DNA of 64,000 bases from Candidatus Omnitrophota bacterium. GTDB taxonomy: Bacteria; Omnitrophota; Gorgyraeia; Tantalellales; Tantalellaceae. Both the position numbers and the translations under genes were made by a program. Under the pieces are notes generated by a model, which worked only from the letters and a program-made list of their open reading frames with translations, did not search any database and was not told where the DNA came from. How positions within the stretch are numbered: position 1 is the stretch's first letter; each line of letters starts with the position of its first letter. Below, one piece after another: positions 4,838 through 61,396 of the stretch. Location of the stretch: positions 40,791 to 104,790 of the forward strand of contig JADGBR010000007.1 of assembly GCA_015231405.1 (NCBI GenBank). The letters run 5' to 3'.

Positions 4838-6349
4838 ATGAAGGTATATCTGGCCGGTTTTAACGTGGACACGACGGTCCTTAAAGAGCTGGAGGAGCGA
4901 GCGGGTAAGCGCGACGACGTGACACCCGAGGTCATTTCGGCGGCGTACGCCCGCATAAGCCGCGATCCCCGTCCCGTCAACGAGATACGCAAGGACGCCC
5001 GCGGGGAAGTCGAGAAGTCCCGCAAGTCCAATTCAACCATCATTTTCAAGATGGGGCATCATTCCGTGGCCGAGCACGCAGTTTTTAATCTCGATGTTAT
5101 CGGCGTTTCGCGGTTAGCCATGGAGGAAGTGGAGAAGTTCAGGCTTTGTTCGTACACGGAGAAATCGCAAAGGTATGTTACTCTCGATAAGGATTATGTC
5201 GTCCCGGATGAAATAAAAGGCACGTGGCTCCATCCGGTTTTTGAGGATATGATCCGTGCCCAGAACGAGGCCTATTTCAAGCTTTTCGCGCTACTGAAAG
5301 AGCATGTTTTCGTGAAATTTCACGAGCTCGCCAAAGACCCTAAGAACCAGAGCCTTCTTGAGGGATGGGCGAAGGAAGACGCGAGGTATATCACCGCGCT
5401 TGCTACCGAATCGCAGGTCGGAGAGACCATTAACGCGAGGAACCTGGAGTTGATGCTCAGGCGTTTTGCTTCTCATCCGCTCGCCGAGGTAAAAGCTCTC
5501 GGGAGGGCTATTTTTAAGGAGATCCACGAGGTCGCGCCTTCTATCGTGCTCTTTCATGAGGCTAACGATAAGGATATCAAGACATACCCCGAGCTTAGGG
5601 AGCTGGCCACCGGGATATTGGGCGCCTGCATGGCCCGGGATAAATGGGACGGCGAAGAGGTGAAACTTGTGGAATATACCCCCGGGGCAGACGATATCAT
5701 AGCCGCCGCTATACTTCATGTATCGTCTAACCTGTCTTATGAAGAATGCGCCGGAGCCGTAAAAAGAATATCGCTCCAGGATAAAAGAAAAATATTCACT
5801 ACCAGCTGGCGGAACATGCAACTCTACGACTCTATGCTCCGCGAGTTCGAGTACGCCAATCTCACTTTCAATATCGTCCTGTCTTCCGCCTGTTTCGGCC
5901 AGCTTAAAAGGCATAGGATGTCCACTATAACAAGCCAGGGTTACGATCCGTCGCTCGGGAATACTATTCCCGAGTCGGTCAAAGAGATAGGGATGGAAGG
6001 CCTTTTTAAGGATATAGTGTCGAGGACCAACGAAACCTATGAAAAGATAGCAAAAGAGATACCCGCCGCGGCTCCGTACATACTCACCAATTCCCACAGG
6101 AAAAGGGTCCTTATCCGGATGAACGCGAGGGAGATGTATCATATTTCCCGGCTTCGGGAAGACGCGCATTCCCAGTGGGACATACAGAATATTTCCCGGT
6201 CGATGGTCCGTAAAGCCAAAGAGGTGATGCCGCTGGCGTTCGAATTCGCCGGCGGTAAAGACCGTTTCGGCGAGATCTATAACGGCATTTACGGTCATGG
6301 GCCGAAGGTGGCCGAGGCCGTTCTTCCCGGCGCCAGGAAAATAAAATAA
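4838..6349 (+). CDS. thyX: FAD-dependent thymidylate synthase ThyX, tandem-duplicated long form
   Basis: Thy1-family signature in first half (HHSVAEHAVFNLDVIGVSR ... SQRYV) and RHR motif in second half (LKRHRMSTITSQ). 503 aa fits the double-length ThyX seen in some lineages. Confidence 0.75.
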   Translation: MKVYLAGFNVDTTVLKELEERAGKRDDVTPEVISAAYARISRDPRPVNEIRKDARGEVEKSRKSNSTIIFKMGHHSVAEHAVFNLDVIGVSRLAMEEVEKFRLCSYTEKSQRYVTLDKDYVVPDEIKGTWLHPVFEDMIRAQNEAYFKLFALLKEHVFVKFHELAKDPKNQSLLEGWAKEDARYITALATESQVGETINARNLELMLRRFASHPLAEVKALGRAIFKEIHEVAPSIVLFHEANDKDIKTYPELRELATGILGACMARDKWDGEEVKLVEYTPGADDIIAAAILHVSSNLSYEECAGAVKRISLQDKRKIFTTSWRNMQLYDSMLREFEYANLTFNIVLSSACFGQLKRHRMSTITSQGYDPSLGNTIPESVKEIGMEGLFKDIVSRTNETYEKIAKEIPAAAPYILTNSHRKRVLIRMNAREMYHISRLREDAHSQWDIQNISRSMVRKAKEVMPLAFEFAGGKDRFGEIYNGIYGHGPKVAEAVLPGARKIK

Positions 6350-6452
6350 AAAAATACTTTTGAAAAAAAGAATCATGCGTTGACACTTTCCCGGGACTAG
6401 TATATATTAACCCCGGAAAAATCGGTTTTTAAACGGAGGTGTAGAAAAGGAG

Positions 6453-8342
6453 ATGGAGATGGATCAAAGGTATAAGGATTTTCTGACAAAAAAATGCGGC
6501 GAGGAGAACTATAAGAAAATTGTGGACCTCGAGAACCCGAAGTTGTACTACTTCATCGCTAAATACGTGGAGCTGTGTGATCCCGACAGGGTATTCGTGC
6601 GTACGGACGACCCGAAGGACGCCGAGTATCTCAGGAAAAAAGCGATCGAGCTTGGCGAGGAGAAAACGCTGGCCGCTAAGGGGCATACCATACATTTTGA
6701 CGGCTATTTTGATCAGGGCCGGGACAAAGCCAATACCCGGTATCTGCTTCGCCCGGACGAAGTTCTGGGTTCGGATATAACTTCAATGGACAGGGAGAAG
6801 GGTCTCGCCGAAATACACGAAAGGCTCAGCAATATCATGGCCGGGAGGGAAATGTACATTTGTTTCTTCTGCCTGGGCCCTAACAATTCACCTTTCTCGA
6901 TACCGGCCGTGCAGATCACAGACTCTGCCTACGTGACGCATTCGGAGGATATCCTTTATCGCCCGGGTTATGAGGAGTTCAAGAAGCTGAAAGGTTCCGA
7001 CAGATTCTTCCGCGCCGTGCACAGCTCCGGGAAATTGACGAATAACGTCAGCGAGGACCACCATAACCGCAGGGTTTTCATTAATATCCTGGACGAGATA
7101 GTTTACAGCGTGAACACCCAGTACGCCGGCAATACCGTCGGGCTTAAGAAACTGGCGATGAGGCTAGCTATAAAGAGGTCGTCGGAGGAAGGGTGGCTTA
7201 CGGAACATATGTTCATCATGGGGGTGCACGGGCCGGATAATAAAAGGGTGACGTATTTCACCGGCTCTTTTCCGAGTGCCTGCGGGAAGACCGCGACGGC
7301 GATGCTCGGGGGGGAAAAGATCATAGGGGACGATATCGCATATCTCCGCAATATCAACGGCACCCTGAAAGCCGTTAACGTGGAGAGGGGCATCTTCGGC
7401 ATTATCCAGGATGTCAGCCAGGAGAACGACCCGACTATTTTTAAAGCCTTGACCGATCCGGGGGAGGTCATTTTTTCGAACGTCCTGAAGGACCCTTCGG
7501 GCAATCCCCGTTGGCTGAGCGACGGCAGACAGGATCCCAGGGAAGGGATCAATTATTCGGGCGACTGGTTCCCCGGGAAAAAAGGCCCCGATCAGAAAGA
7601 TGTGCCGTTCGCACACAAGAACGCCAGGTATACCATCAGCCTTAAAAATATGGACAATTGCGATCCGAAGATCGAGGATCCCAACGGGATAGAAATAGGC
7701 GGCATAATCTACGGGGGCAGGGACTCGGATACGAGCCTGCCGGTCGTTGAATCGTTCGACTGGAACCACGGGATACTCACGCAGGCGGCCACCATAGAAT
7801 CAGAGACCACCGCGGCGACCCTCGGCAAAGAAGGCGTCAGGGAATTCAACCTTATGGCCAATCTGGATTTCCTTTCGATACCCGTAGGACGATACATACA
7901 GAACAACCTCGAGATCATTGACGGGGTCAAAACGCCGCCGCGTATTTTCCACGTCAATTATTTTCTCAGAGGACAGGACGGAAAATATCTGAACGGGATA
8001 AAGGACAAGCATGTATGGCTGAAGTGGATGGAGCTAAGGGTGAACATGAACGCGGAAGCTCTCAAGACGCCTATAGGTTTCATACCCGAATACAAAGACC
8101 TGGCCGAGCTTTTCAAGAAGGTGCTTGGAAAGGAGTATAAGAAAGAATCCTATGACGAGCAGTTCACCCTTCGTATACCCGAACAGATAGCTAAGATCTC
8201 TAGGATCCGGGAAATTTACCACACAAAGGTTTTCGACGCTCCGCATATACTGTTCAAAACCCTGGACGCTCAGAAAACGCGCCTTACGAAATGCCGTAAA
8301 GAACACGGGGATTATGTTAAACCGTCGGCGTTCGGCGCTTGA
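6453..8342 (+). CDS. pckG: Phosphoenolpyruvate carboxykinase (GTP)
   Basis: PEPCK-GTP P-loop FPSACGKT ([15 protein letters not shown]); ~630 aa typical length. Confidence 0.85.
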
Positions 8343-9315: not shown

Positions 9316-9410
9316 CCGTCATTGCGAGGAGCAATAGCGACGAAGCAATCCCTGTAATTTATTATTTTAACAGAGATTGCTTCGGGCACTTCGTGCCCTC
9401 GCAATGACGG
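9316..9410. repeat. Palindromic intergenic repeat element, family A (core CCGTCATTGCGAGGAGC-AGCGACGAAGCAATC), full copy with inverted partner
   Basis: CCGTCATTGCGAGG (9316-) pairs with CCTCGCAATGACGG (-9410); inner GAAGCAATC/GATTGCTTC. Related copies at 12325 and 16899. Confidence 0.6.
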
Positions 9411-9433
9411 CTAATTTGTCCGTAACTATTATT

Positions 9434-10465
9434 ATGAAACAGCCTGATTTGTCACCCACCACCCGGCACATAATTATAGATCCGGACAATATCGATCCGG
9501 ATCTTATTCGGGAAGCAGCGGATGTCATACGAAGAGGCGGACTTGTAGCCTTCCCCACAGAAACCGTTTACGGGCTCGGAGCGAACGCTCTTGACGCTAA
9601 GGCGGTCGCGAAGATATTCGAAGCGAAAAAAAGGCCTCTTGATGATCCGCTTATCGTTCACATAAATGATAAAGCGAGTTTGGATATTCTCGTCCGCGAT
9701 ATTTCCCCGGTTGAAACAGCTCTCGCGGCCAGGTTCTGGCCGGGGGCTCTTACGCTCGTCCTGAATAAAAAGGACATTATCCCGGATATCGTCACTACGG
9801 GTCTCGATAGCGCCGCTATACGTATGCCCTCCGGAAAGATAGCCTTGGCTCTTATAAAGGCCGCCGGTGTGCCCATCGCGGCGCCGTCGGCGAACCTTTT
9901 CGGGAAGACATCGCCGACGACCGCGGCCCATGTGAAAGAGGATCTTGACGGAAGGATAGACCTGATCATCGACGGAGGCAGTACGGATATAGGAGTAGAA
10001 TCTACCGTTATATCTGTCGTGGACGGTGAAGTGCGGATCCTGAGGCCGGGAGGGGTCAGCGTAGAGGAAATTAGGGAGATCGTTCCGCGCGTGAAGGTAT
10101 ATACGGAAGAGGAAATAATTAAATGCTCACCCGGGAAATACAAACAGCACTACGCGCCCCGCGCGGCGGTAGTTATAGTAGCGAATGACCGGGCGCAGAC
10201 GGATAAATGCCTGGCCCTGGCTAAAGAGGCGGCTAAAAGATCGAAAGTCGGGATAATGTCAAAGGCCGAGCACGCTGTGTTCTATAAGCCTTTCAATACG
10301 CGGGTCATGGGTCCCGGTGACGATCTCGCCAAATGCGCAACAGGTCTTTTCCGTGTGCTTAGGGAATTCGATTCCGACGGTACCGAAATAATTTTCGCCG
10401 AAGCGGTCGAGGAGCGCGGTTTGGGGCTCGCGATCATGAACAGGCTGCGTAAGGCGGCGGGGTAG
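9434..10465 (+). CDS. tsaC: L-threonylcarbamoyladenylate synthase (Sua5/YrdC/TsaC family)
   Basis: VAFPTETVYGLGANALD and Sua5 C-terminal domain. The ORF-track TTG start at 9377 lies inside the palindromic repeat, so ATG 9434 is preferred. Confidence 0.8.
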   Translation: MKQPDLSPTTRHIIIDPDNIDPDLIREAADVIRRGGLVAFPTETVYGLGANALDAKAVAKIFEAKKRPLDDPLIVHINDKASLDILVRDISPVETALAARFWPGALTLVLNKKDIIPDIVTTGLDSAAIRMPSGKIALALIKAAGVPIAAPSANLFGKTSPTTAAHVKEDLDGRIDLIIDGGSTDIGVESTVISVVDGEVRILRPGGVSVEEIREIVPRVKVYTEEEIIKCSPGKYKQHYAPRAAVVIVANDRAQTDKCLALAKEAAKRSKVGIMSKAEHAVFYKPFNTRVMGPGDDLAKCATGLFRVLREFDSDGTEIIFAEAVEERGLGLAIMNRLRKAAG

Positions 10466-46048: not shown

Positions 46049-46591
46049 ATGGAACGCCGTTCGATATTTCACTTGGTATCCAAGATATCCAGGCAGGCCG
46101 GAGTTAACTGTGTGCTGATCGGCGGATTTGCCGTTAATTATTACAAAGTCACAAGGCAGACAGCTGATGTCGATTTTATGATAACGGAAGAGGATTATAG
46201 AAAGATCGAAGCTTTGATCAAAGAGGCAGAATACAAAGAGGATCAAAGCCATGGGAATTTTATACGGTTAAAGAGTACCGGCAGCAAGTTCTTTATGGAT
46301 GTCGATTTTATGTTCGTAGATAAAAATACGCTGGATAAGATCCTGGACAATGGAAAAAAAATGACCATAGCGGGGCAGGAATTTACAGTGCCTTCTTTGA
46401 ACGATCTCATCGCGTTGAAACTCCATGCCCTTAAATACAATGCTAAACTGAGAGAGACTAAAGATCTGCCGGATATTATCGATCTTATCAGGATAAACAA
46501 TATAGAATATAAGAGCAAAGACTTTCACGATCTATGTTTTAAGTATGGTAATGCCGAGACATACGAAAAGATAATGAAAACACTGGAGTAA
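46049..46591 (+). CDS. Nucleotidyltransferase-fold protein (AbiEii/MJ1651-like minimal NTase?)
   Basis: VLIGGFAVNYY...DVDFMI pattern. Confidence 0.35.
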   Translation: MERRSIFHLVSKISRQAGVNCVLIGGFAVNYYKVTRQTADVDFMITEEDYRKIEALIKEAEYKEDQSHGNFIRLKSTGSKFFMDVDFMFVDKNTLDKILDNGKKMTIAGQEFTVPSLNDLIALKLHALKYNAKLRETKDLPDIIDLIRINNIEYKSKDFHDLCFKYGNAETYEKIMKTLE

Positions 46592-46865: not shown

Positions 46866-46941
46866 TCCTCGGTAGCTCAATGGTAGTAGCGACTGGCTGT
46901 TAACCAGTAGGTTGTAGGTTCGAGTCCTACCCGAGGAGCCA
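46866..46941 (+). tRNA. tRNA-Asn (anticodon GTT)
   Basis: Hand-folded cloverleaf: acceptor TCCTCGG/CCGAGGA, anticodon stem ACTGG/CCAGT with loop CTGTTAA, T-arm GTAGG-TTCGAGT-CCTAC, discriminator G, encoded CCA. Confidence 0.85.
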
Positions 46942-46984: not shown

Positions 46985-47369
46985 TTAAATGGCTCCGAGG
47001 GTAGGACTCGAAGGGAGATCTGGAGCCTTTAATCAAGGTCTGGTCCGAGAGAGCGAGGACCAGACACACAACCGACAGATCGGGTGGCCGACCGGAGGCC
47101 TGCTATGTTTTTTGAGGAGCGAAAGCGACGAACAAAAACATGCTAGCGGGCCGAAGGCGCCGAGTCCCGCTTTCGTACGTTAAAACAAAACCAAATTGCC
47201 CCCCTATTTCCCTTGTCAAACCCACCATAAAATGCTATTGTAAACCCACGTCAGGGGGAATGTTTGACATGCGAGACCAGTCACAAACCTCAAATAACCA
47301 AAGCGTCACAAAAAAGGCACTGGGCTAACCCGGTGCCTTTTTTGCTTTTGAAAGAAAATAACGTCAATT

Positions 47370-49787
47370 ATGCGGCTTTATTCAGGAACATCAAAACAGT
47401 TTATTCAAGATGCGATTCATAATCAGATTGCAGAGAAGTTAAAAAACGCTTTTTTCGGCTATTACCGCTACAATCCTTCTCCTGCTGAGATAAATTCTTG
47501 GCGAAATTCGCTACGTTCAATGTCCCAAGTATTTCAACACGCAGATCTATTGGACAATGGAGTTCTTCTCGAGTATCAACTGCCTCTAACTTCGAGACGC
47601 TTAGATTGCATGATCTGTGGCCGTGATCAGCAAAAAACTGATAATGCGGTTATCGTGGAGTTGAAACAATGGGATAAGTGCGAAGAAGCCTATGGTGATA
47701 ACGAAGTACTTACGTGGGTAGGAGGTGCAAAACGCGAAGTATTGCATCCGTCGGTTCAAGTGGGACAATACCACCTTTATCTGGAAGATACCCATACAGC
47801 ATTTAACAGCGAAGATGATCCTGTTGTCCTGAATGCCTGTACTTATTTGCATAATTACAATTACTATTCTGAGGACATTATTTATTCGGATAAATTTGCT
47901 CAGACTCTTGAGAAGTACCCCTTATTTACAGCTGATGATGTGGAAAAATTAACGGGTTATTTGCGTAATAGACTTTTGGCCGGTGATGGCTTGGATGTTT
48001 TGCAGAGGATCGAAGAAAGTAAATATCGGCCGAATAAGAAGCTCATGGATCATGTTGGTAATATTATAAAAAACAAAACAGAATATATACTGCTAGATGA
48101 ACAACTTATTGTTTACGATGCGGTCTTGGCATGCGCGAAGCGAAGCTTCCATGATAAGCAGAAGTCAATAATTGTTGTAAAAGGTGGTCCGGGAACGGGT
48201 AAGTCTGTTATAGCGATTAATTTAATGGCTGATTTGCTATTAAAGGGATACAACTCTCATTATGCCACTGGCTCTAAGGCCTTCACGGAAACACTGCGGG
48301 AAATCATAGGAACTCGAGGATCTGTGCAGTTTAAGTATTTTAATAGTTACAGCCAAGCTGAAGAGAATGCCATAGATATCCTGATTGCTGATGAAGCCCA
48401 CCGCATACGCGAGACAAGCAATAGCCGATTCACACCCCGTTCGAGTCGATCAGAAAAGACGCAAATTGAGGAATTGCTTCGAGCGTCTAAAGTCGCGGTA
48501 TTTTTCATTGATGACGATCAAGTGGTGCGTCCAAATGAAATAGGTTCGGTTGATTATATTAAGAATATTGCGGGCGATAATAAAATAAAGCTCCACGAAT
48601 ATGAATTAGAAGCTCAGTTCCGTTGTAATGGTTCTGATGCGTTTGTGAGCTGGATAAACAATACGTTAGGGATAAAAAGAACTGCCCATGTTATTTGGGA
48701 TCAGCATGAAGAATTTGATTTCAAGATATTTCCCAGTCCCCTTGAACTTGATAATGCCATACGGAAGAGAGTCGCGCGGGGTTCTACGGGGAGAGTAACG
48801 GCCGGGTTTTGCTGGGACTGGTCATTACCTAACGGCGATGGCACATTGAAAAACGATGTGATAATTGGAGATTATAAGCGGCCATGGAATGCTAAACCCG
48901 AAGCTCAACGTCTGGCGCTGGGTATCCCCAAAGCTTCTCTGTGGGCATACGAACCTGTCGGCATTGATCAGGTAGGATGTGTCTATACCGCTCAAGGTTT
49001 TGAATTCGATTACGTTGGAGTTATTTTCGGCGAGGATGTGGTATATGATTTTGACAAGCAAGAATGGGTTGGCAATCCCGCTAAGTCTTCGGACAGAGTT
49101 GTTAAACGGTCTAAAGACAAATTTGCCGATTTAGTGAAAAATACCTATAGGGTTTTATTGAGTAGAGGGATGAAGGGCTGCTATGTATATTTCATGAATA
49201 AAGATACTGAACGTTTCTTTAAGTCACGGATTGAAGGTGATAATACACGGGTAGACGAACCCTTAACAGTATCTAAACTACTAGATAGCGAGTCGGATTT
49301 TCTTGAGCGTATTTTACAGGATGTTGACAGTTCTTTAAAATATAAGGAATATTTACCCGTTTATACTTTGACTGCAGCTGCTAGCGCGTTCGGCGAGGGT
49401 ATGGATGTTAGGGAAAAGGGTTGGATTAAAGTTAATATTGGAAAGCCACTAAACAGAAAATTGTTCGTTGCAAAAGTGGTTGGAAAATCAATGGAGCCGC
49501 TGATCCCAGATGGCAGCTATTGTGTATTTAGCGCGAATGTTGTTGGTACGCGGGCAAACAAAATAGTATTAGTGCAACACAATAGCATTTCAGATCTAGA
49601 TACCGGTGGAAGATATACCATAAAAAAGTACACGAGTAAGAAACGATACGCGTCAGATGAAACCTGGGAGCACGAAGAGATAGTCCTACTGCCAATTAAT
49701 CCCGCATATGCGCCGATTATAATACCAAATACCAACGAGGATGAATTTATGGTAATCGCTGAGTTTATTACCATAATAAAGAATTAG
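47370..49787 (+). CDS. PD-(D/E)xK nuclease / DUF2075-type P-loop ATPase fused to a C-terminal LexA-like S24 peptidase domain
   Basis: N-terminal nuclease-like D...VELK motif. Walker A GGPGTGKS and Walker B LIADEAH. C-terminal GKSMEP (Ser) ... TIKKY (Lys) ... VLLPINPAYAPI matches the LexA/UmuD catalytic-domain pattern. Confidence 0.7.
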   Translation: MRLYSGTSKQFIQDAIHNQIAEKLKNAFFGYYRYNPSPAEINSWRNSLRSMSQVFQHADLLDNGVLLEYQLPLTSRRLDCMICGRDQQKTDNAVIVELKQWDKCEEAYGDNEVLTWVGGAKREVLHPSVQVGQYHLYLEDTHTAFNSEDDPVVLNACTYLHNYNYYSEDIIYSDKFAQTLEKYPLFTADDVEKLTGYLRNRLLAGDGLDVLQRIEESKYRPNKKLMDHVGNIIKNKTEYILLDEQLIVYDAVLACAKRSFHDKQKSIIVVKGGPGTGKSVIAINLMADLLLKGYNSHYATGSKAFTETLREIIGTRGSVQFKYFNSYSQAEENAIDILIADEAHRIRETSNSRFTPRSSRSEKTQIEELLRASKVAVFFIDDDQVVRPNEIGSVDYIKNIAGDNKIKLHEYELEAQFRCNGSDAFVSWINNTLGIKRTAHVIWDQHEEFDFKIFPSPLELDNAIRKRVARGSTGRVTAGFCWDWSLPNGDGTLKNDVIIGDYKRPWNAKPEAQRLALGIPKASLWAYEPVGIDQVGCVYTAQGFEFDYVGVIFGEDVVYDFDKQEWVGNPAKSSDRVVKRSKDKFADLVKNTYRVLLSRGMKGCYVYFMNKDTERFFKSRIEGDNTRVDEPLTVSKLLDSESDFLERILQDVDSSLKYKEYLPVYTLTAAASAFGEGMDVREKGWIKVNIGKPLNRKLFVAKVVGKSMEPLIPDGSYCVFSANVVGTRANKIVLVQHNSISDLDTGGRYTIKKYTSKKRYASDETWEHEEIVLLPINPAYAPIIIPNTNEDEFMVIAEFITIIKN

Positions 49788-49897
49788 CACATAGACTTGA
49801 GCACATAGTCTTTGGGTTTAGAGAAATGTTATGAGATGAATATTTGTTATGGAACTGCTTCTAATATGGCAGTTTAAGTAAAGCGTCTTTGCTGGCT

Positions 49898-50078
49898 TAA
49901 CAGTGGTGTAATATGTTATGCACAGTGTCTGCGGGGATGCGGGGAGGGGAGAGTTTAAGCGAAGGTTATGCAAGAAAGCCGGCAGATGGGTGTCAAGGCG
50001 TAAAAAGGCACCCGGATTTGTTTCATAACTAACGGTGGTGTAATATGTTATGCACAGTGTCTGCGGGGAGAACGGGGC
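49898..50078. repeat. Two 40-bp direct repeats (49898-49937 and 50039-50078): TAAC(A/G)GTGGTGTAATATGTTATGCACAGTGTCTGCGGGGA
   Basis: Identical except for one base; located between the S24-fusion gene and its truncated 3' duplicate. Confidence 0.8.
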
Positions 50079-50093
50079 GGCTCGCGCAATGGA

Positions 50094-50318
50094 TTGGTGG
50101 TTTTAGTTGAGTCTCGTTTGGTGAGGGATCCGGAGTCCCACCAGAGTTTCACGATCAAACGATATCACAGCGAGAAGCAGGATCTTGGTGGTGGTGAATG
50201 GCGGCATAAGAAGATCACGCTATCGCCTGACAATAAGGATTTTCACGATATCGTGCTGAAAGATATTACCGGCGGGGATTTTCATGTAGTAGCCGAATTT
50301 GTTGAAGTGATCGTATAA
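50094..50318 (+). pseudogene. Truncated duplicate of an S24-domain C-terminus, a remnant of a paralogous DUF2075-S24-like gene
   Basis: VVLVESRLVRDPESHQSFTIKRYHSEK...HVVAEFVEVIV aligns with IVLVQHNSISDLDTGGRYTIKKYTSKK...MVIAEFITIIK of the upstream gene. Confidence 0.5.
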
Positions 50319-50335
50319 CTATATTGTGAGTAGCT

Positions 50336-51502
50336 ATGAAAAATGCCTTTATTGTTATGCAAATTGGTAATGCTGAGCTCGACTCTGTTTGCGAGCAAGC
50401 TATTGTCCCTGCCCTCAAAAAATGTGGTCTAGATCCCAAGCGAGTAGATAAGCATAATCAGGGAGGACTGCTGAAAAGCGAGATCGTAAATTTTATTGAA
50501 TCCTCGGAGATTATAATCGCCGATCTTACTAACGAAAGGCCAAATTGTTATTTGGAAGTTGGCTACGCGATGGGGTTAGATAAGTTTAGGCATCTGATAC
50601 TGACTGCGCGAGAGGATCACAATCACGATAGCCCAAATTATATAAAAACCGGTCCCAAGATTCATTTTGACTTAGCTGGTTATGATATTTTATTTTGGGA
50701 TCCGAAAAAACTCGACAATTTCAAAGATGAGCTTGAAAAGCGAGTTAAACGGCGCTTGGCTACTCTTCAAACCCCTCCCTCGAAAGAAGAAACTATTTGG
50801 GATGACGATTGGATAAATAATCATGCTGTTACCGCACATGCCAATTTAAAGAAATCAAATAAATCCGGATTTATGGAAATTCGAATGGTCATACCCAATT
50901 CAGGCCTCAATATTCCACAAAGTGAATTGCTGAGTGTTGCTGAACAGGCGACAATCCATACTTTTGGATGGCCAATCGGTGTTGTTCTGAAAAACAGGGA
51001 CGAATACCGACCGCGTCCTAAAACAGATGGTATTGTTGCTGATATAGACACAGGGGATCATTATGATTATTGGGCGATTAGGAAAGATGGCGCGTTCTAT
51101 CTCTTGAAAAGCTTATTCGAAGATATGCGAAAGCCGGGGCATCTATTTTTTAATACGCGTATTGTGAGGATTACGGAGGCGCTTTTGTATGCAGTGCGCC
51201 TTTATACTGGATTTAAAGTTCCAGCAGATTCCCGAGTCGTTATTGGAATAAAGCATGGTGGATTAAAAGATAGAATGCTCGTTTCTTCAAGTTTTTCGCG
51301 AGAACTTAGTTATGAAAGAAAATCGATCGAGGATGAGGTGTACACTGAGATTGACACTACTCTTGCTAAGATCGAGTCACAGTTACCCGATCAGGTTGAG
51401 GCACTTACAAAACCGCTATTCGTATTATTTGATTACTTTGAAATCGGCAGATCTGTTTTGGATGATATTGTTAATAAGTTTGTTGAAGGTAAGGTTACTT
51501 GA
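50336..51502 (+). CDS. Protein with an N-terminal nucleoside 2-deoxyribosyltransferase-like (NDT/SLOG-type) domain; C-terminal 250 aa unknown
   Basis: IIADLTNERPNCYLEVGYAMGL resembles the NDT family D...E[LI]G[YF]A catalytic-Glu motif. Confidence 0.45.
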   Translation: MKNAFIVMQIGNAELDSVCEQAIVPALKKCGLDPKRVDKHNQGGLLKSEIVNFIESSEIIIADLTNERPNCYLEVGYAMGLDKFRHLILTAREDHNHDSPNYIKTGPKIHFDLAGYDILFWDPKKLDNFKDELEKRVKRRLATLQTPPSKEETIWDDDWINNHAVTAHANLKKSNKSGFMEIRMVIPNSGLNIPQSELLSVAEQATIHTFGWPIGVVLKNRDEYRPRPKTDGIVADIDTGDHYDYWAIRKDGAFYLLKSLFEDMRKPGHLFFNTRIVRITEALLYAVRLYTGFKVPADSRVVIGIKHGGLKDRMLVSSSFSRELSYERKSIEDEVYTEIDTTLAKIESQLPDQVEALTKPLFVLFDYFEIGRSVLDDIVNKFVEGKVT

Positions 51503-51954
51503 TTTGTCCGAAGTTCTGATATAAACATTTTCTGCTCTTTGGGATTTTTAAGCATCTGCCGTAGCTGACGCTCGGTTATTAGCCGTTTTGGCATGGGATC
51601 GCCCAAGGCTTCAACGGCTTCGACCAGCGAAGGGTTAAGGTCAAGAAGGCTCGTATATTGCCAGATCCTGACCCGGGAGATGCCGACTTTGCGGGCAAGG
51701 TCGCTTTCGTTCTTGGCATGGCCTGATTCGATCATTCGGGCGTATTCCTTGGCCCGGAAGATGGGGTTCCGGTAGGTCTTTGGCGGTTTGGGGCGGATCC
51801 TGCGGGCTTCGTCAGGCGTCTGGCCTTCGCGGACGATGGAAATGATGCGATGATTCCATTTTCCCTGTTCGGTCACAAGCGCGGTGAAGTGCCATAACAG
51901 GCCTGAATCTGAATACCGTCCGGGGAGCCAATTTTCAGAAACCCCTACAGACAT
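51433..51954 (-). CDS. ParB/KorB-like HTH protein; start uncertain because the start codon sits inside a hairpin, and there is a 70-bp convergent overlap with the previous gene
   Basis: NPIFRAKEYARMIESGHAKNESDLARKVGISRVRIWQYTSLLDLNPSLVEAV resembles the ParB HTH region. Confidence 0.35.
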   Translation of the reverse strand: MSVGVSENWLPGRYSDSGLLWHFTALVTEQGKWNHRIISIVREGQTPDEARRIRPKPPKTYRNPIFRAKEYARMIESGHAKNESDLARKVGISRVRIWQYTSLLDLNPSLVEAVEALGDPMPKRLITERQLRQMLKNPKEQKMFISELRTNQVTLPSTNLLTISSKTDLPISK

Positions 51955-52498: not shown

Positions 52499-53071
52499 GT
52501 GGATATGAGCGTATTACTCGGAACCAGACTCCGCAACAAGCTGTTAACTTACGCGTTCTCCCGCGCGGACGGTGAGTTTTATGTGCGCGAGGCTGCCTCG
52601 GTCATAGGAGAGGACCCCGGCAACCTTTCAAGGGAGCTTAAACGCCTTGAGGGCGAGGGTCTTTTTGTTTCCCGCACTTCCGCGAACGCCAGATTTTATT
52701 CGGTCAATAAGAACTATTATCTTTTCAATGAGCTCAAGGCCGTTGTCGCCAAAACGTCGGGCGTTGAGGCCAGACTGAAGGACATAGCTGCGTCGCACAA
52801 AGAAATAGAGCTCGCGTTCATTTACGGATCATACGCGAAAAATACCGAGAAAAAAGGTTCTGATATCGACGTTGTCTTTGTAGGAAGATCTCTTCCCGAA
52901 AAGGTCATTACTGATATCAACTTGCTTGAGAGCGAGATCTCAAGAGAGATCAACTACACGTTCTACAAAAAAAACGACTTTGAGAAAAAACGCCTTGAAA
53001 AAGGCGGTTTTCTCGCCGAAGTTCTCGCCGGGAAAACCCTGGTACTGAAAGGGGAGGTCCATGAAAGATAA
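52499..53071 (+). CDS. HTH + minimal nucleotidyltransferase (MNT-type) protein
   Basis: N-terminal winged-helix-like region; NTase motif IYGSYAKNTEKKGSDIDVVFV. Confidence 0.6.
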   Translation: MDMSVLLGTRLRNKLLTYAFSRADGEFYVREAASVIGEDPGNLSRELKRLEGEGLFVSRTSANARFYSVNKNYYLFNELKAVVAKTSGVEARLKDIAASHKEIELAFIYGSYAKNTEKKGSDIDVVFVGRSLPEKVITDINLLESEISREINYTFYKKNDFEKKRLEKGGFLAEVLAGKTLVLKGEVHER

Positions 53072-53144
53072 ACTGGTAGAAAGGCTAATTAAGGAAGAAA
53101 AACTTTAAAAACAGACATCCGGGATAATTCAGGTAGAAAAACTT

Positions 53145-53534
53145 TTGAAAGAAGCCGTAATTGATATGGGAGAGGCATCGAAGATCAGAAATATTTCCGA
53201 AAGGGGAACATATCTTCTTGCCTACGGGGCGATGCTTAAAACCGGAAGGGCTCTCGTTCTTTTCCTGGGATATGTCCCGGATGACGGGGCGCAGCATAGG
53301 ACCGTGACAGAAATTGTCGCCGCGTGTCTGGGAGAAAAATTCAATAAAGTTACGTCTCATTTTGAAAGAATGCGCAGAAAAAGGAACGATCTTACATATG
53401 AGGCGGGCATTCTCCTTTCCGGAAGCGAAGCGGAAGAGGCGTTGTCCGACGCGAAAAAGCTTATCAGTGAAATATCTAACCACATAAAGACCAAGGATCC
53501 ACAGCTGCGGTTCGATTTTGAAGTTGAGTCATGA
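53145..53534 (+). CDS. HEPN-like / NTase-substrate-binding-like partner of the MNT gene (TTG start)
   Basis: Position directly downstream of the MNT gene. RMRRKRNDLTYEAG resembles the Rx4-6H HEPN motif but with Y/T in place of H. Assigned by context. Confidence 0.4.
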   Translation: MKEAVIDMGEASKIRNISERGTYLLAYGAMLKTGRALVLFLGYVPDDGAQHRTVTEIVAACLGEKFNKVTSHFERMRRKRNDLTYEAGILLSGSEAEEALSDAKKLISEISNHIKTKDPQLRFDFEVES

Positions 53535-54353: not shown

Positions 54354-55817
54354 ATGGCAAAATCAAAAAGTGTGTTGGGGGTGGGCAGAGTAATGCCTGA
54401 GCTACCTAAAGTTATGACCGGCATTCAGGGGTTAGATGAGATAACATTCGGAGGACTGCCAAAGGGGCGACCTACCCTTGTGTGCGGAGGCCCCGGTTGC
54501 GGCAAGACGCTCTTGGCTATGGAGTTTCTTTGCAGGGGCGCTCTGCAATATAACGAACCCGGCGTCTTTATTGCCTTCGAAGAGAAAGAGAAAGATCTGG
54601 AGGAAAATTTCGCCTCGCTCGGTTTCGATTTAAAATCGCTTGTAAAGCACAAAAAACTCGTTATCGATTATGTCTACATCGAAAGAAGCGAGATCGAAGA
54701 GACGGGCGAATATGATCTTGAAGGACTCTTCGTCCGTTTAGCGGCCGCCATTGATTCGATCGGCGCAAAAAGAGTAGTTCTCGATACCATCGAGGCCCTA
54801 TTTTCAGGGTTTTCAAATGAATCGATCCTGCGCGCGGAATTAAGGCGGCTATTCCGCTGGCTTAAAGATAAGGGAGTCACGGCAGTAATTACCGGCGAAA
54901 AAGGCGAGTCACTTCTAACAAAGCATGGATTGGAAGAGTATGTCGCGGATTGCGTCATACTCCTCGATCACCGCACGGTTAATCAGATTGCAACGAGACG
55001 TCTTAAGATAATAAAGTATCGCGGTTCAAAACACGGAACCAACGAATTCCCGTTCCTTATAGGCGAAACCGGTATCTCTGTTTTTCCCATGACGAGCTTA
55101 CTTTTATCAAGCACTGTGAGCTCTCGGCGTATATCATCCGGCATAAAGAGCCTCGATGAGATGTTGGGCAATAAAGGCTATTACAGGGGGAGCACTATCC
55201 TTGTATCCGGATCAGCAGGAAGCGGGAAGACCAGCTTTGGCGCCAAGTTTGTGGACGCCGTATGTGAGACTGGCGAACGCGCGTTATATCTCGCTTTTGA
55301 GGAGCCTGAAGACCAGCTATCCAGAAATATGAAGAGCATAGGTATCGATCTTAAGAAGTGGATAGATAAAGGGCTATTGAAGATCAATGCTAACAGGGCA
55401 ACCCTGTGCGGCCTTGAGATGCATCTTGTCATGGCGCATAACGCAGTAAGAGATTTTAAGCCGTCGGTCGTTGTCATAGATCCGATCACGACACTGATAG
55501 GCGCAGGGATGGCGGATGAGGCAAAAGCGATGATGGCCAGGCTTCTCGATTATCTTAGGAACGAAGGCATCACCGTTTTGGCGACAGACCTCTCGCTTGG
55601 CAGTACTCATGGGGATAGCGCGGAAATAGGCATATCATCTCTTTGTGACACGTGGATAAGGCTATCCATGGAAACTCAAGGATACAGGAGGATGCGCAGA
55701 CTTAGTATCATAAAATCAAGAGGCATGAAACATGCCCATGATACAAAAGATTTTATGATAACCGACAACGGGCTCGAGATGAAAGATATTCCCGGCCGAA
55801 AGGAGGACTTAAGATGA
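54354..55817 (+). CDS. kaiC: KaiC-like double RecA-domain ATPase
   Basis: [16 protein letters not shown], two Walker A motifs ([16 protein letters not shown]), 487 aa; strong RBS AAAAGGAGA. Confidence 0.85.
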
Positions 55818-56098
55818 AGAAGGCCGCTTATAGACTTAAATTATATGTAGCTGGGACAACGCCTAAATCATTAGAGGCTTTCGCTAATCTTAAAAAGATA
55901 TGCGAGGAGTATCTTAAGGGGCAATATTCTATCGAAGTAATAGATCTTATCAAAAACCCCAAGCTTGCCAAAGGCGACCAGATAATCGCGATACCGACAC
56001 TTGTAAGACACTTGCCCGAACCGATAAAGAAGATCATAGGCGATCTTTCCAACAAAGAGAAGGTTCTTGTGGGATTAAATATTATAAATAAAGGATAA
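55814..56098 (+). CDS. kaiB: KaiB, copy 1
   Basis: [25 protein letters not shown]...[25 protein letters not shown]; 94 aa. Confidence 0.85.
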
Positions 56099-56100
56099 AA

Positions 56101-56433
56101 ATGGCTAAACAAAAAAACGATATCGGAAAACAATTGGAACAGCGAACAAAGAAAAAAGAAATGAAAAAATATGTCCTTCATCTCTATGTCGCTGGTCTTT
56201 CTCCACGGTCACAAAAAGCGATAGATAATATAAAGAAACTATGCGATGAGCACTTAAAAGGTCAGTATGAACTTGTGATTCAGGATATATATAAGAACCC
56301 TGTGATGGCCAAGAACAGTCAGATACTTGCCGCGCCTACTCTTGTCAAAGAATTACCTTTGCCTCTACGCAAGTTTGTGGGGGATATGTCTAACACGGAA
56401 AGATTAATTCTCGGATTGGATCTTAAGGAATAA
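56101..56433 (+). CDS. kaiB: KaiB, copy 2 with basic N-terminal extension
   Basis: LHLYVAGLSPRSQKAIDNIKKLCDEHLKGQYELVIQDIYKNPVMAKNSQILAAPTLV; 110 aa. Confidence 0.8.
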   Translation: MAKQKNDIGKQLEQRTKKKEMKKYVLHLYVAGLSPRSQKAIDNIKKLCDEHLKGQYELVIQDIYKNPVMAKNSQILAAPTLVKELPLPLRKFVGDMSNTERLILGLDLKE

Positions 56434-56439
56434 TAATAA

Positions 56440-58915
<2,476 letters not shown>

Positions 58916-58926
<11 letters not shown>

Positions 58927-59278
58927 ACGAATTTTGATTATTGAAGATGATATCCATCTCGCCGATTCGCTTTCCGAGCTTTTAGAGGATGAAGGCTACT
59001 TTGTGGAGTGCGCCAAGGACGCAGTTAAGGGAGAGATCCTTATAAGAAAGGGCAACTTCGACGTCATTCTGCTGGATTACAAAATGCCCTTACTTAGCGG
59101 CATAGACATACTCAAAAAGCTTAAAGCCGATAATATAAGAAAACGTATTTTTATTGTCTCAGGAAGACCTTCTACGGAGCGATCTCTCAAAGAAGAAGAT
59201 GTTTTTGATATGATCAGCGGCATAATCGTAAAACCCATTAATATTGAAGCTTTTCTTGAGAAAATAAAAAATGCATAA
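58916..59278 (+). CDS. Stand-alone receiver-domain response regulator (CheY-like)
   Basis: ILIIEDD ... DVILLDYKMP ... phosphoacceptor pattern; 120 aa; overlaps the kinase stop by 11 bp. Confidence 0.85.
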
Positions 59279-59999: not shown

Positions 60000-60608
60000 G
60001 TGATAAATATGACAGAATCCATTGAGAATAGAATACTTCACCGGATCATTGGCAAGAAAAAGGGGTGGGTGTTTGCCCCAACTCATTTTTTTGATCTTGG
60101 AAATCGTGCCGGGATAGATCAGGCCTTAAGCCGGTTGGTTCGGTCTCGGGATATCCGCAGATTAACGCGTGGTCTTTATGATTATCCCCGGAAGGATCCG
60201 ACTTTTGGAGATGTGCCTCCAAGCGTTGATCGTCTTGCCGCCGCACTTGCTGAAAAAGATAATCTTAAGATCCAACCTTCCGGAGCATACGCGGCCAACT
60301 TGCTTGGCATGTCTCATCAAGTACCGGCAAAGATTGTTTTCTTAACAGACGGATCTTCCCGTATGGTTCAGATCGGCAATTGGCATATTAAGTTAAAAAA
60401 GACAACACCCAAGAATATGGCGACCGCTGGGCGCATGAGCGGCTTGGTTATTCAAGCCTTACGTTATATGACGCAAGAGAATATCGATGGCAAAATTATT
60501 AAAAAACTTAAAGGAAAATTATCAGTCGAGGACAAAAAACAGCTTATGAGTGATATTCGTTATGCCCCGGCTTGGATAGGTGAAATATTTAAACAGCTAA
60601 ATTCGTAG
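60000..60608 (+). CDS. AbiEi-like / DUF6088-type winged-HTH protein (putative antitoxin/regulator)
   Basis: GWVFAPTHFFDLGNRAGIDQALSRLVRSRDIRRLTRGLYDYP pattern. GTG at 60000 or ATG at 60009. Confidence 0.5.
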   Translation: MINMTESIENRILHRIIGKKKGWVFAPTHFFDLGNRAGIDQALSRLVRSRDIRRLTRGLYDYPRKDPTFGDVPPSVDRLAAALAEKDNLKIQPSGAYAANLLGMSHQVPAKIVFLTDGSSRMVQIGNWHIKLKKTTPKNMATAGRMSGLVIQALRYMTQENIDGKIIKKLKGKLSVEDKKQLMSDIRYAPAWIGEIFKQLNS

Positions 60609-60655
60609 CATTTTCTTGGCTTTTATACCAGTAAGCCAGTAAGGATGGAGGACAT

Positions 60656-61396
60656 ATGAAAGAGATTTTAAGTAAGGTTGAAGAGGCTCAGGCGAAAATA
60701 AACGCATTGCGTCCATTTTGTAATGAAATGAACCATCAAATAAAGGAATATTTTCGTATCGGGCTCACCTATTCAAGCAATGCGCTTGAGGGCAACTCTC
60801 TGACGATATCGGAAACAAAAGTGGTCATCGAGGATGGGCTTACCATAGCCGGAAAGCCGCTTAGAGATCATTACGAGGCCACGGGCCACAGTGACGCGTT
60901 CGATCACATGTATGCTCTCTCTACAGGAAAAACGATAACGGAAGAAGATACTAAAAAATTGCACGCGCTCTTTTATCACCGCATTAAAGAAGGGGATGCG
61001 GGGGTGTATCGAAAAGTCCAGGCCATTATTACCGGCTCTCAATATCCATTGCCTACGCCTGAGGCATTGCCGGGAATGATGCAGAAATTTATTAAAGATC
61101 TGCCCAATTTAAAAATAGACAACCATCCGGTTGTCTATGCCGCCAAGCTCCATAAAGAGTTTGTGTTCATTCACCCGTTTGTTGATGGCAATGGGCGGGT
61201 AGCAAGACTTTTAATGAATGTGGCGCTTATGCAGGCAGGATACATTATTGCGATCATTCCGCCGCTCAAACGGTCGGAATACATCAGCGCTCTTGAAAAA
61301 TCGCATAAAATTGATGCGGATTTTATTGAGTTGATAGCGTCATGCGTCTATGAAACTCAGAACGATCTATTACGCATGGCTAATGGGAAAAGTTGA
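60656..61396 (+). CDS. fic: Fic-family protein (class II, with intrinsic N-terminal inhibitory motif)
   Basis: HPFVDGNGRVARLL active-site motif. N-terminal SNALEG matches the (S/T)xxxE(G/N) inhibitory motif. Confidence 0.9.
   Translation: MKEILSKVEEAQAKINALRPFCNEMNHQIKEYFRIGLTYSSNALEGNSLTISETKVVIEDGLTIAGKPLRDHYEATGHSDAFDHMYALSTGKTITEEDTKKLHALFYHRIKEGDAGVYRKVQAIITGSQYPLPTPEALPGMMQKFIKDLPNLKIDNHPVVYAAKLHKEFVFIHPFVDGNGRVARLLMNVALMQAGYIIAIIPPLKRSEYISALEKSHKIDADFIELIASCVYETQNDLLRMANGKS

Follow-up and report, generated by a model that had tools for sequence, protein, structure and literature searches.

A 3′ hsdR-S24 remnant between an Nhi-like and a TIR/NDT-like gene of an Omnitrophota bacterium, probably a scar of defence-gene replacement

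In the 64-kb stretch of Candidatus Omnitrophota DNA analysed here (the window), 548 bases separate the stop of an 805-aa gene (47370-49787) from the start of a 388-aa gene (50336-51502), and these bases hold both a short open reading frame resembling the end of the 805-aa protein and two copies of a 40-nt direct repeat. We sought to establish where this frame came from and whether the repeats had any part in its arrival. A preliminary description had taken the frame for the 3′ remnant of a gene paralogous to its upstream neighbour, most of which was later replaced, and had offered the repeats as recombination sites or operators. The features on which the question turns are the following.

46866..46941, plus strand, tRNA-Asn(GTT), detected by ARAGORN and Rfam; left edge of the low-GC foreign segment
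47370..49787, plus strand, intact 805-aa Nhi-like DUF2075-S24 defence gene, as predicted from Pfam and PADLOC
49788..50069, no strand assigned, orphan spacer of 282 bp, holding both 40-nt copies and part of a 14-bp tandem repeat
49898..49937, plus strand, 40-nt direct repeat copy 1 (TAACAGTGGTGTAATATGTTATGCACAGTGTCTGCGGGGA), followed by a second TGCGGGGA
50030..50069, plus strand, 40-nt direct repeat copy 2, 39/40 identical to copy 1
50070..50333, plus strand, 3′ remnant of an hsdR-S24 gene, from nucleotide and amino acid homology to loci L021, L020 and L001
50336..51502, plus strand, 388-aa TIR/NDT-like gene, from AF2, Foldseek and PADLOC

The open reading frame listed inside the remnant (50094-50318) comprises 74 codons from a TTG start, and its product gave an ungapped alignment with residues 732-803 of the 805-aa protein, 23 of 72 positions being identical (32%; BLASTP, E = 7e-13), which bears out the homology proposed for the two proteins. 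A further alignment agreed with the earlier remark that the catalytic Ser region is absent: the remnant has no GKSMEP motif, while the TIKRY Lys and the reading frame are intact, leaving only the Lys of the Ser-Lys catalytic dyad of an active Peptidase S24. Pfam returned no match for the remnant alone. When 49788-50335 was aligned at the nucleotide level with the 3′ end of 47370-49787, as the preliminary description had proposed, the remnant showed no similarity to it (45% identity when codon-aligned, 29% at third positions, nothing by BLASTN). A local duplicate of the neighbouring gene's end was rejected on these values, which exclude recent duplication, a TR/VR pair of a diversity-generating retroelement and homologous recombination between the two ends; a diversity-generating retroelement was further rejected on finding no reverse transcriptase among the neighbouring ORFs examined.

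At the nucleotide level the remnant is most similar to the 3′ ends of hsdR-S24 genes in L021, L020 and L001. The gene of L021, from an Omnitrophota MAG, is intact and encodes 1195 aa with HSDR_N, SWI2_SNF2, T1RH-like_C and S24 domains; the remnant matches it with 87.9% nucleotide identity over 239 nt and 93% amino acid identity over 85 residues, and its nucleotide identity to L020 and L001 is 85% and 78%, respectively. The preliminary description was right in seeing the 3′ end of another S24-ending gene here, but the parent is an hsdR gene and not a close paralogue of the 805-aa gene. The remnant resembled a local duplicate because the lost and the incoming genes share an S24-type ending.

In every nucleotide and protein comparison the homology starts sharply at 50070 (GAACGGGGCGG, encoding ERGG), and the DNA upstream of this base bears no relation to what codes for FCIFRF in the intact genes. 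From there the remnant comprises the last 82 codons of the gene, the stop codon at 50316-50318 and about 15 nt of native 3′ flank, in which 12 of 15 nt past the stop codon still match L001, to ~50333. With the stop ending at 50318 and the next gene beginning at 50336, the gap is 17 nt, not the 18 bp first given. The break falls inside the S24 domain and not at a domain boundary. As in a pseudogene, homology to the 3′ end of full-length genes is combined with an abrupt breakpoint and absence of the 5′ part. When L021, L020 and L001 were compared with the whole window by tblastx, its two S24 regions were matched and nothing else, and neither this search nor Pfam analysis of the neighbouring genes found hsdM, hsdS or other hsdR parts in the 64 kb; about 1,100 hsdR codons are missing from the locus.

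Between the remnant and L021, dN/dS was 0.04 (dS 0.84), like the 0.02-0.04 of intact gene pairs; nearly all of the divergence therefore predates the truncation and was gathered in a working gene, which suggests that hsdR-S24 was truncated recently. Four residues are peculiar to the remnant, one of them a Gly replacing a conserved Glu/Asp. We read 50070-50333 as a non-functional scar, the 3′ end of an hsdR-S24 gene left by illegitimate replacement in a defence island, and put the probability of this reading at roughly 0.8.

Against a scar, the intact frame and the dN/dS value typical of functional genes are also compatible with continued expression of the stub, which would then be a free-standing C-terminal S24 half that works as a small gene and is perhaps a regulator or decoy for the upstream S24 module. 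Such a gene would have its 82 codons intact, dN/dS of 0.04 and a possible TTG start at 50094, and it would have company in the many short 'S24 family peptidase' entries of public databases: the translated fragment, extended to the nearest upstream in-frame stop, resembled 60 proteins of that name with up to 85% identity, mostly from Omnitrophota. Those short entries that come with genomic context, however, are the ends of large genes or else frameshift or contig-edge artefacts, as illustrated by L001, where the S24 ORF terminates a frameshifted hsdR, and L002, where it terminates a 1199-codon frame beside hsdS. The remnant itself has no ATG, TTG/GVG at 50094/50097 being the sole possible starts, and the TTG at 50094 is preceded by no convincing ribosome-binding site or clear Shine-Dalgarno sequence. 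It breaks in mid-domain where the upstream homology ends abruptly, a recent truncation accounts for its low dN/dS equally well, and it was apparently left uncalled in the NCBI annotation of the MAG (no 100% match was returned). A working stub is in our judgement very improbable, and 50070-50333 deserves annotation as a pseudogene fragment.

The GC profile places the remnant in a stretch of ~40% GC at ~47.2-51.5 kb, between flanks of ~52%. Low GC beside tRNA-Asn therefore marks the 805-aa gene, the remnant and the 388-aa gene as a small foreign segment adjoining this tRNA gene. Four segments unrelated to one another adjoin here: the 805-aa gene, the 282-bp spacer, the remnant and the TIR/NDT-like gene. 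The source is a MAG contig and the junction coincides with a repeat, as it would if the assembly had joined two loci or two strains at the 40-nt sequence. A repeat of 40 nt is, however, shorter than the usual final-stage assembly k-mers, and the two copies together span 172 nt of a single contig; GC is equal on either side of the junction, and host-like GC returns symmetrically at ~47.2 and ~51.5 kb. A chimera would, moreover, presuppose that hsdR had been truncated behind this 40-nt unit beforehand, and we give this explanation next to no credence.

An island bounded by an att duplication of tRNA-Asn was also considered and rejected, with only a 23-nt inverted fragment beside the tRNA and no direct repeat downstream. 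This inverted copy of the tRNA 3′ end (21/23 positions) lies at 46985-47007, 44 nt 3′ of the tRNA gene and directly past its terminator-like hairpin, and may have been left behind when an integration or inversion took place at the tRNA in the past. At the other edge of the low-GC segment, GC climbs to ~50% at 51433-51954, where a 173-aa ParB-HTH-like gene on the minus strand is convergent with the 388-aa gene, whose last 70 nt it overlaps.

The gene upstream of the remnant encodes an 805-aa protein with an SLFN-g3/DUF2075 helicase core at residues 265-608 and Peptidase_S24 at residues 694-798 (Pfam), and it matched the Nhi, AbiO and PDC-S41 models of PADLOC. Its C-terminal LexA-like S24 module has both Ser and Lys. 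From these matches the protein is predicted to be an Nhi-like anti-phage protein with an extra S24 tail. Nhi and Nhi-like anti-phage proteins combine a nuclease with DUF2075 (Millman et al., preprint, 10.1101/2022.05.11.491447). The 805-aa gene has the DUF2075 core and the PADLOC matches to Nhi and AbiO in common with them, and its product differs from them in the added C-terminal S24 module. Relatives of the gene reach 83% nucleotide and 92% amino acid identity, the shared stretch spanning only 47366-49766 and stopping ~20 nt short of the stop codon. Many relatives with 70-77% identity (loci L128-L171, e.g. L130 and L136) match residues 1-622 only and possess no S24; one and the same helicase core can therefore occur with or without the S24 tail. 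The claim that most of the older gene had been replaced stands, the DNA there now including the 47370-49787 gene.

Downstream, the 388-aa protein is identical to the hypothetical protein HQL30_05020 of a Candidatus Omnitrophica MAG and has 1566 homologues with 60-87% identity across phyla. In its AlphaFold (AF2) model (pLDDT 82.8), the N-terminal domain as predicted resembles TIR and nucleoside 2-deoxyribosyltransferase structures (Foldseek E ~1e-3, TM-score to the targets 0.5-0.58), and for the C-terminal domain (~residues 175-388) Foldseek gave no informative structural match. PADLOC matched the protein to a TIR effector (1.7e-10), and we regard the gene as a candidate single-gene defence or accessory protein. 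Its nucleotide homology with relatives is confined to 50334-51505, i.e. to the ORF, upstream DNA being unrelated; the family travels as the ORF alone, and the genes preceding its relatives vary (type III Res, type I hsdM, TPR, GGACT and others, 7 contexts in all). Sharing only the ORF and having unrelated predecessors, the NDT-like gene could therefore have arrived after the truncation.

That an ancestral S24-ending gene once abutted the NDT-like gene, as the preliminary description supposed, is plausible but was not demonstrated by the comparison of loci. The 388-aa gene adjoins the S24 module in 0/80 S24-module loci and is present in 0/80 DUF2075 loci; conserved synteny of an S24-ending gene followed by an NDT-like gene was rejected for these 80 + 80 loci and the 7 NDT-like contexts, and no relative examined has kept the presumed ancestral order of hsdR-S24 then NDT-like gene. 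As a separate observation, members of the NDT-like family often stand directly behind restriction-modification genes (type III res, type I hsdM; L003, L006, L009, L010, L172 and L173), and a ParB_N-methyltransferase gene comes next after the NDT-like gene in L003-L005.

Searches of 174 related loci, GTDB genomes, JGI metagenomes, IMG/VR, plasmids, phages and Rfam turned up nothing resembling the 282-bp spacer. We rejected it as the native 3′ flank of the DUF2075-S24 gene, for homology ends at the ORF in 80 loci, and as a remnant of hsdR or an L021-type locus, for which tblastx gave a negative answer. A structured RNA was likewise rejected, the spacer folding no better than shuffled sequences on either strand (z = -0.5, -0.2), and Rfam searched at gathering cutoffs and at E<=5 yielded only a chance snoRNA match at 50296-50365, outside the spacer. 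At 49786-49812, beginning inside the stop codon of the 805-aa gene, AGCACATAGACTTG is tandemly repeated (14-bp unit, 1.9 copies).

The two near-identical 40-nt repeats of the preliminary description are real (39/40 identical, 0 expected in shuffled controls), with copy 2 located at 50030-50069, nine bases from the 50039-50078 originally reported, and with the starts of the copies 132 nt apart. Both edges are sharp and flanking similarity is at chance level; each copy begins with TAAC, and the terminal TGCGGGGA occurs once more at copy 1. The repeats were correctly placed at the junction. Copy 2 runs right up to the breakpoint, its final base directly preceding the hsdR-S24 homology, which opens at 50070. 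Each copy contains GGTGGTG-N4-ATG, which could provide a ribosome-binding site and start for ORFs of 39 and 21 codons.

The sharp edges and the single difference between the copies would also fit a dedicated site or the end of a small mobile element. The repeats might accordingly be functional, either as sites of a recombinase or small mobile element or as operator, promoter or translation-start elements for the TIR/NDT-like gene; the termination of copy 2 at the truncation point, the TAAC starts and the GGTGGTG-N4-ATG usable for short ORFs would all suit such a role. No other copy turned up, however, in the window, the 174 related loci or the public collections scanned. The 64-kb window contains no further copy at <=3 mismatches and no degenerate copy detectable by BLAST. 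A 26-mer of the repeat had 0 hits in GTDB genomes and JGI metagenomes, a 20-mer had 0 in IMG/VR, and neither the 26-mer and 20-mer cores nor the 306-bp region found anything in PLSDB plasmids or INPHARED phages; nor does the unit occur behind 80 DUF2075 homologues or ahead of the NDT-like homologues, whose upstream DNA is unrelated. No recombinase or transposase is encoded within ~10 kb, the repeat has no dyad symmetry apart from a weak 5-bp hairpin, and a consensus promoter scan gave fewer sites than chance expectation and none inside the repeats. Other S24 remnants, described below, break elsewhere. The proposal that the repeats are recombination sites or operators gained no support from these searches, and we consider a functional role unlikely.

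Several more specific identities were tried and rejected. A generic REP or MITE is at odds with only two neighbouring copies in 64 kb and none in the public collections scanned, and an att or integron attC site with the lack of inverted-repeat architecture, of any recombinase in the ORFs at 43-64 kb and of recurrence. Microhomology at the junction was dismissed, the CGGGG likeness after both copies being out of register with the real junction, and the TAAC/TAAC pair at 50026-50033 is a misfit with simple unequal crossover. Most simply, the 40-nt repeats have no role as functional sites. They would be a by-product of rearrangement, arising by duplication plus deletion: a local duplication with a 132-nt period, the second copy of which was cut by the junction. 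Such a cut would account for the coincidence of repeat end and breakpoint.

The S24 module is encoded at no fewer than 487 loci across GTDB species representatives, most of them from Omnitrophota and Planctomycetota. In the 80 of these 487 loci that were retrieved, the module almost always terminates a large open frame, of about 790-805, 1045-1060, 1150-1280, 1355 or 1760-1830 codons. A conserved YLPVYxLxA(V/A)A(T/S)xF motif stands ahead of the module, followed by the GKSMEP Ser and the TIKRY Lys. The carriers identified by Pfam are two subfamilies of type I HsdR (with or without T1RH-like_C), Type ISP proteins, ResIII-only proteins and DUF2075/Nhi-like helicases; examples are found at 49311-49787 of the window and in L012-L091 (GTDB), among them L021, L061, L037 and L084. 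Judged from these domain assignments, the S24 module is C-terminal on at least four predicted classes of defence enzyme. In the literature on S24 fused to HsdR or DUF2075, no paper describing the architecture was found.

Other truncated or displaced S24 tails were present among these loci. L174 has a 5′-truncated S24 tail (5944-6276) that starts at module residue 42 (IAQVVGKSMEP) with a stop codon ahead; it lies behind a DUF4011/AAA_11/AAA_12 helicase + DUF3320 gene, in a defence island with HNH, PD-(D/E)XK and two reverse-transcriptase genes. In P0043, P0023 and P0055, unrelated N-termini are fused to the S24 module at three further positions. L032, from a Clostridia MAG, combines an intact hsdR-S24 gene with a 130-bp copy (94%) of its own 3′ end 2.9 kb downstream; the copies lie at 6353-6482 and 9375-9504 with the break at module residue 106, and the 2.9-kb insert between them holds two genes, for a 294-aa membrane protein and a 557-aa repeat protein. 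The layout resembles that of an insertion into the hsdR-S24 3′ end which brought a replacement end. Since the breakpoints differ across these tails (window, L174, P0043, P0023, P0055 and L032), random illegitimate recombination fits the origin of 5′-truncated S24 tails better than a site-specific system. A bolder alternative is that the S24-coding 3′ end is a preferred landing pad for defence-gene exchange in Omnitrophota, Planctomycetota and relatives, the 40-nt unit then being the terminus of some undescribed small element or recombination system by which whole S24-terminated defence genes are swapped ahead of a resident downstream effector. If true, this would account for several independent S24 tails (window, L174, L032, P0023, P0043 and P0055); we treat it as a long shot.

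Under the preferred reading, that of a scar left by illegitimate replacement, a type I restriction-modification operon would once have stood downstream of tRNA-Asn. An illegitimate, i.e. non-homologous, deletion/insertion would have taken out hsdM, hsdS and ~1,100 hsdR codons, and their replacement would have been a horizontally acquired Nhi-like DUF2075-S24 gene together with 282 bp of unrelated DNA. The TIR/NDT-like gene may have been resident already or may represent an independent later insertion. The 3′ stub probably survived because longer deletions would destroy the TIR/NDT-like gene or its translation start.

Such a remnant is an ordinary scar of defence-gene turnover. Like other gene stubs of defence islands, it is the 5′-truncated and apparently promoterless end of a restriction gene, with a horizontally acquired defence gene on either side; it is also tRNA-adjacent and low in GC, and its neighbours share only their ORFs with relatives. 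Unlike ordinary stubs, it sits where the lost and the incoming genes both end in an S24 module and where an unexplained 40-nt repeat marks the junction. With HsdR (HSDR_N + SWI2/SNF2 + T1RH-like_C) it is connected through its nearest relatives, the 3′ ends of such genes, whereas it keeps only 82 codons and no HsdR domain, and the C-terminal S24 of the parent family is foreign to classical HsdR. The parent module matches Pfam Peptidase_S24 and shares the GKSMEP Ser and TIKRY Lys with LexA, UmuD and phage repressors; unlike in those proteins, intact modules are fused to restriction enzymes or helicases and not to a DNA-binding HTH, and the remnant is without the Ser half. Insertion at a 3′ end with duplication of that end, of the attL/attR type, is displayed by L032 for the S24 module, but this mechanism is inapplicable in the window, where no nucleotide similarity connects the stub with the end of the intact gene.

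The scar records one recent swap of a type I restriction system for an Nhi-like helicase in a tRNA-linked defence islet. Its main value is as a pointer to the S24 module, which is found with its Ser-Lys dyad intact on several classes of restriction and defence enzyme. The intact dyad on defence enzymes suggests control by self-cleavage, and restriction enzymes carrying the module may be regulated in this way, possibly in connection with DNA damage.

Further genes of the toxin-antitoxin or defence type surround the low-GC segment, at 46049-46591 (an AbiEii/DUF2204 nucleotidyltransferase), 52499-53534 (a pair of Pol-beta nucleotidyltransferase and HEPN) and 60000-61396 (DUF6088 and Fic). Between the last two, at 54354-59278, lies a cluster encoding KaiC (487 aa), KaiB (110 aa), a multi-PAS histidine kinase (828 aa) and a response regulator (120 aa).
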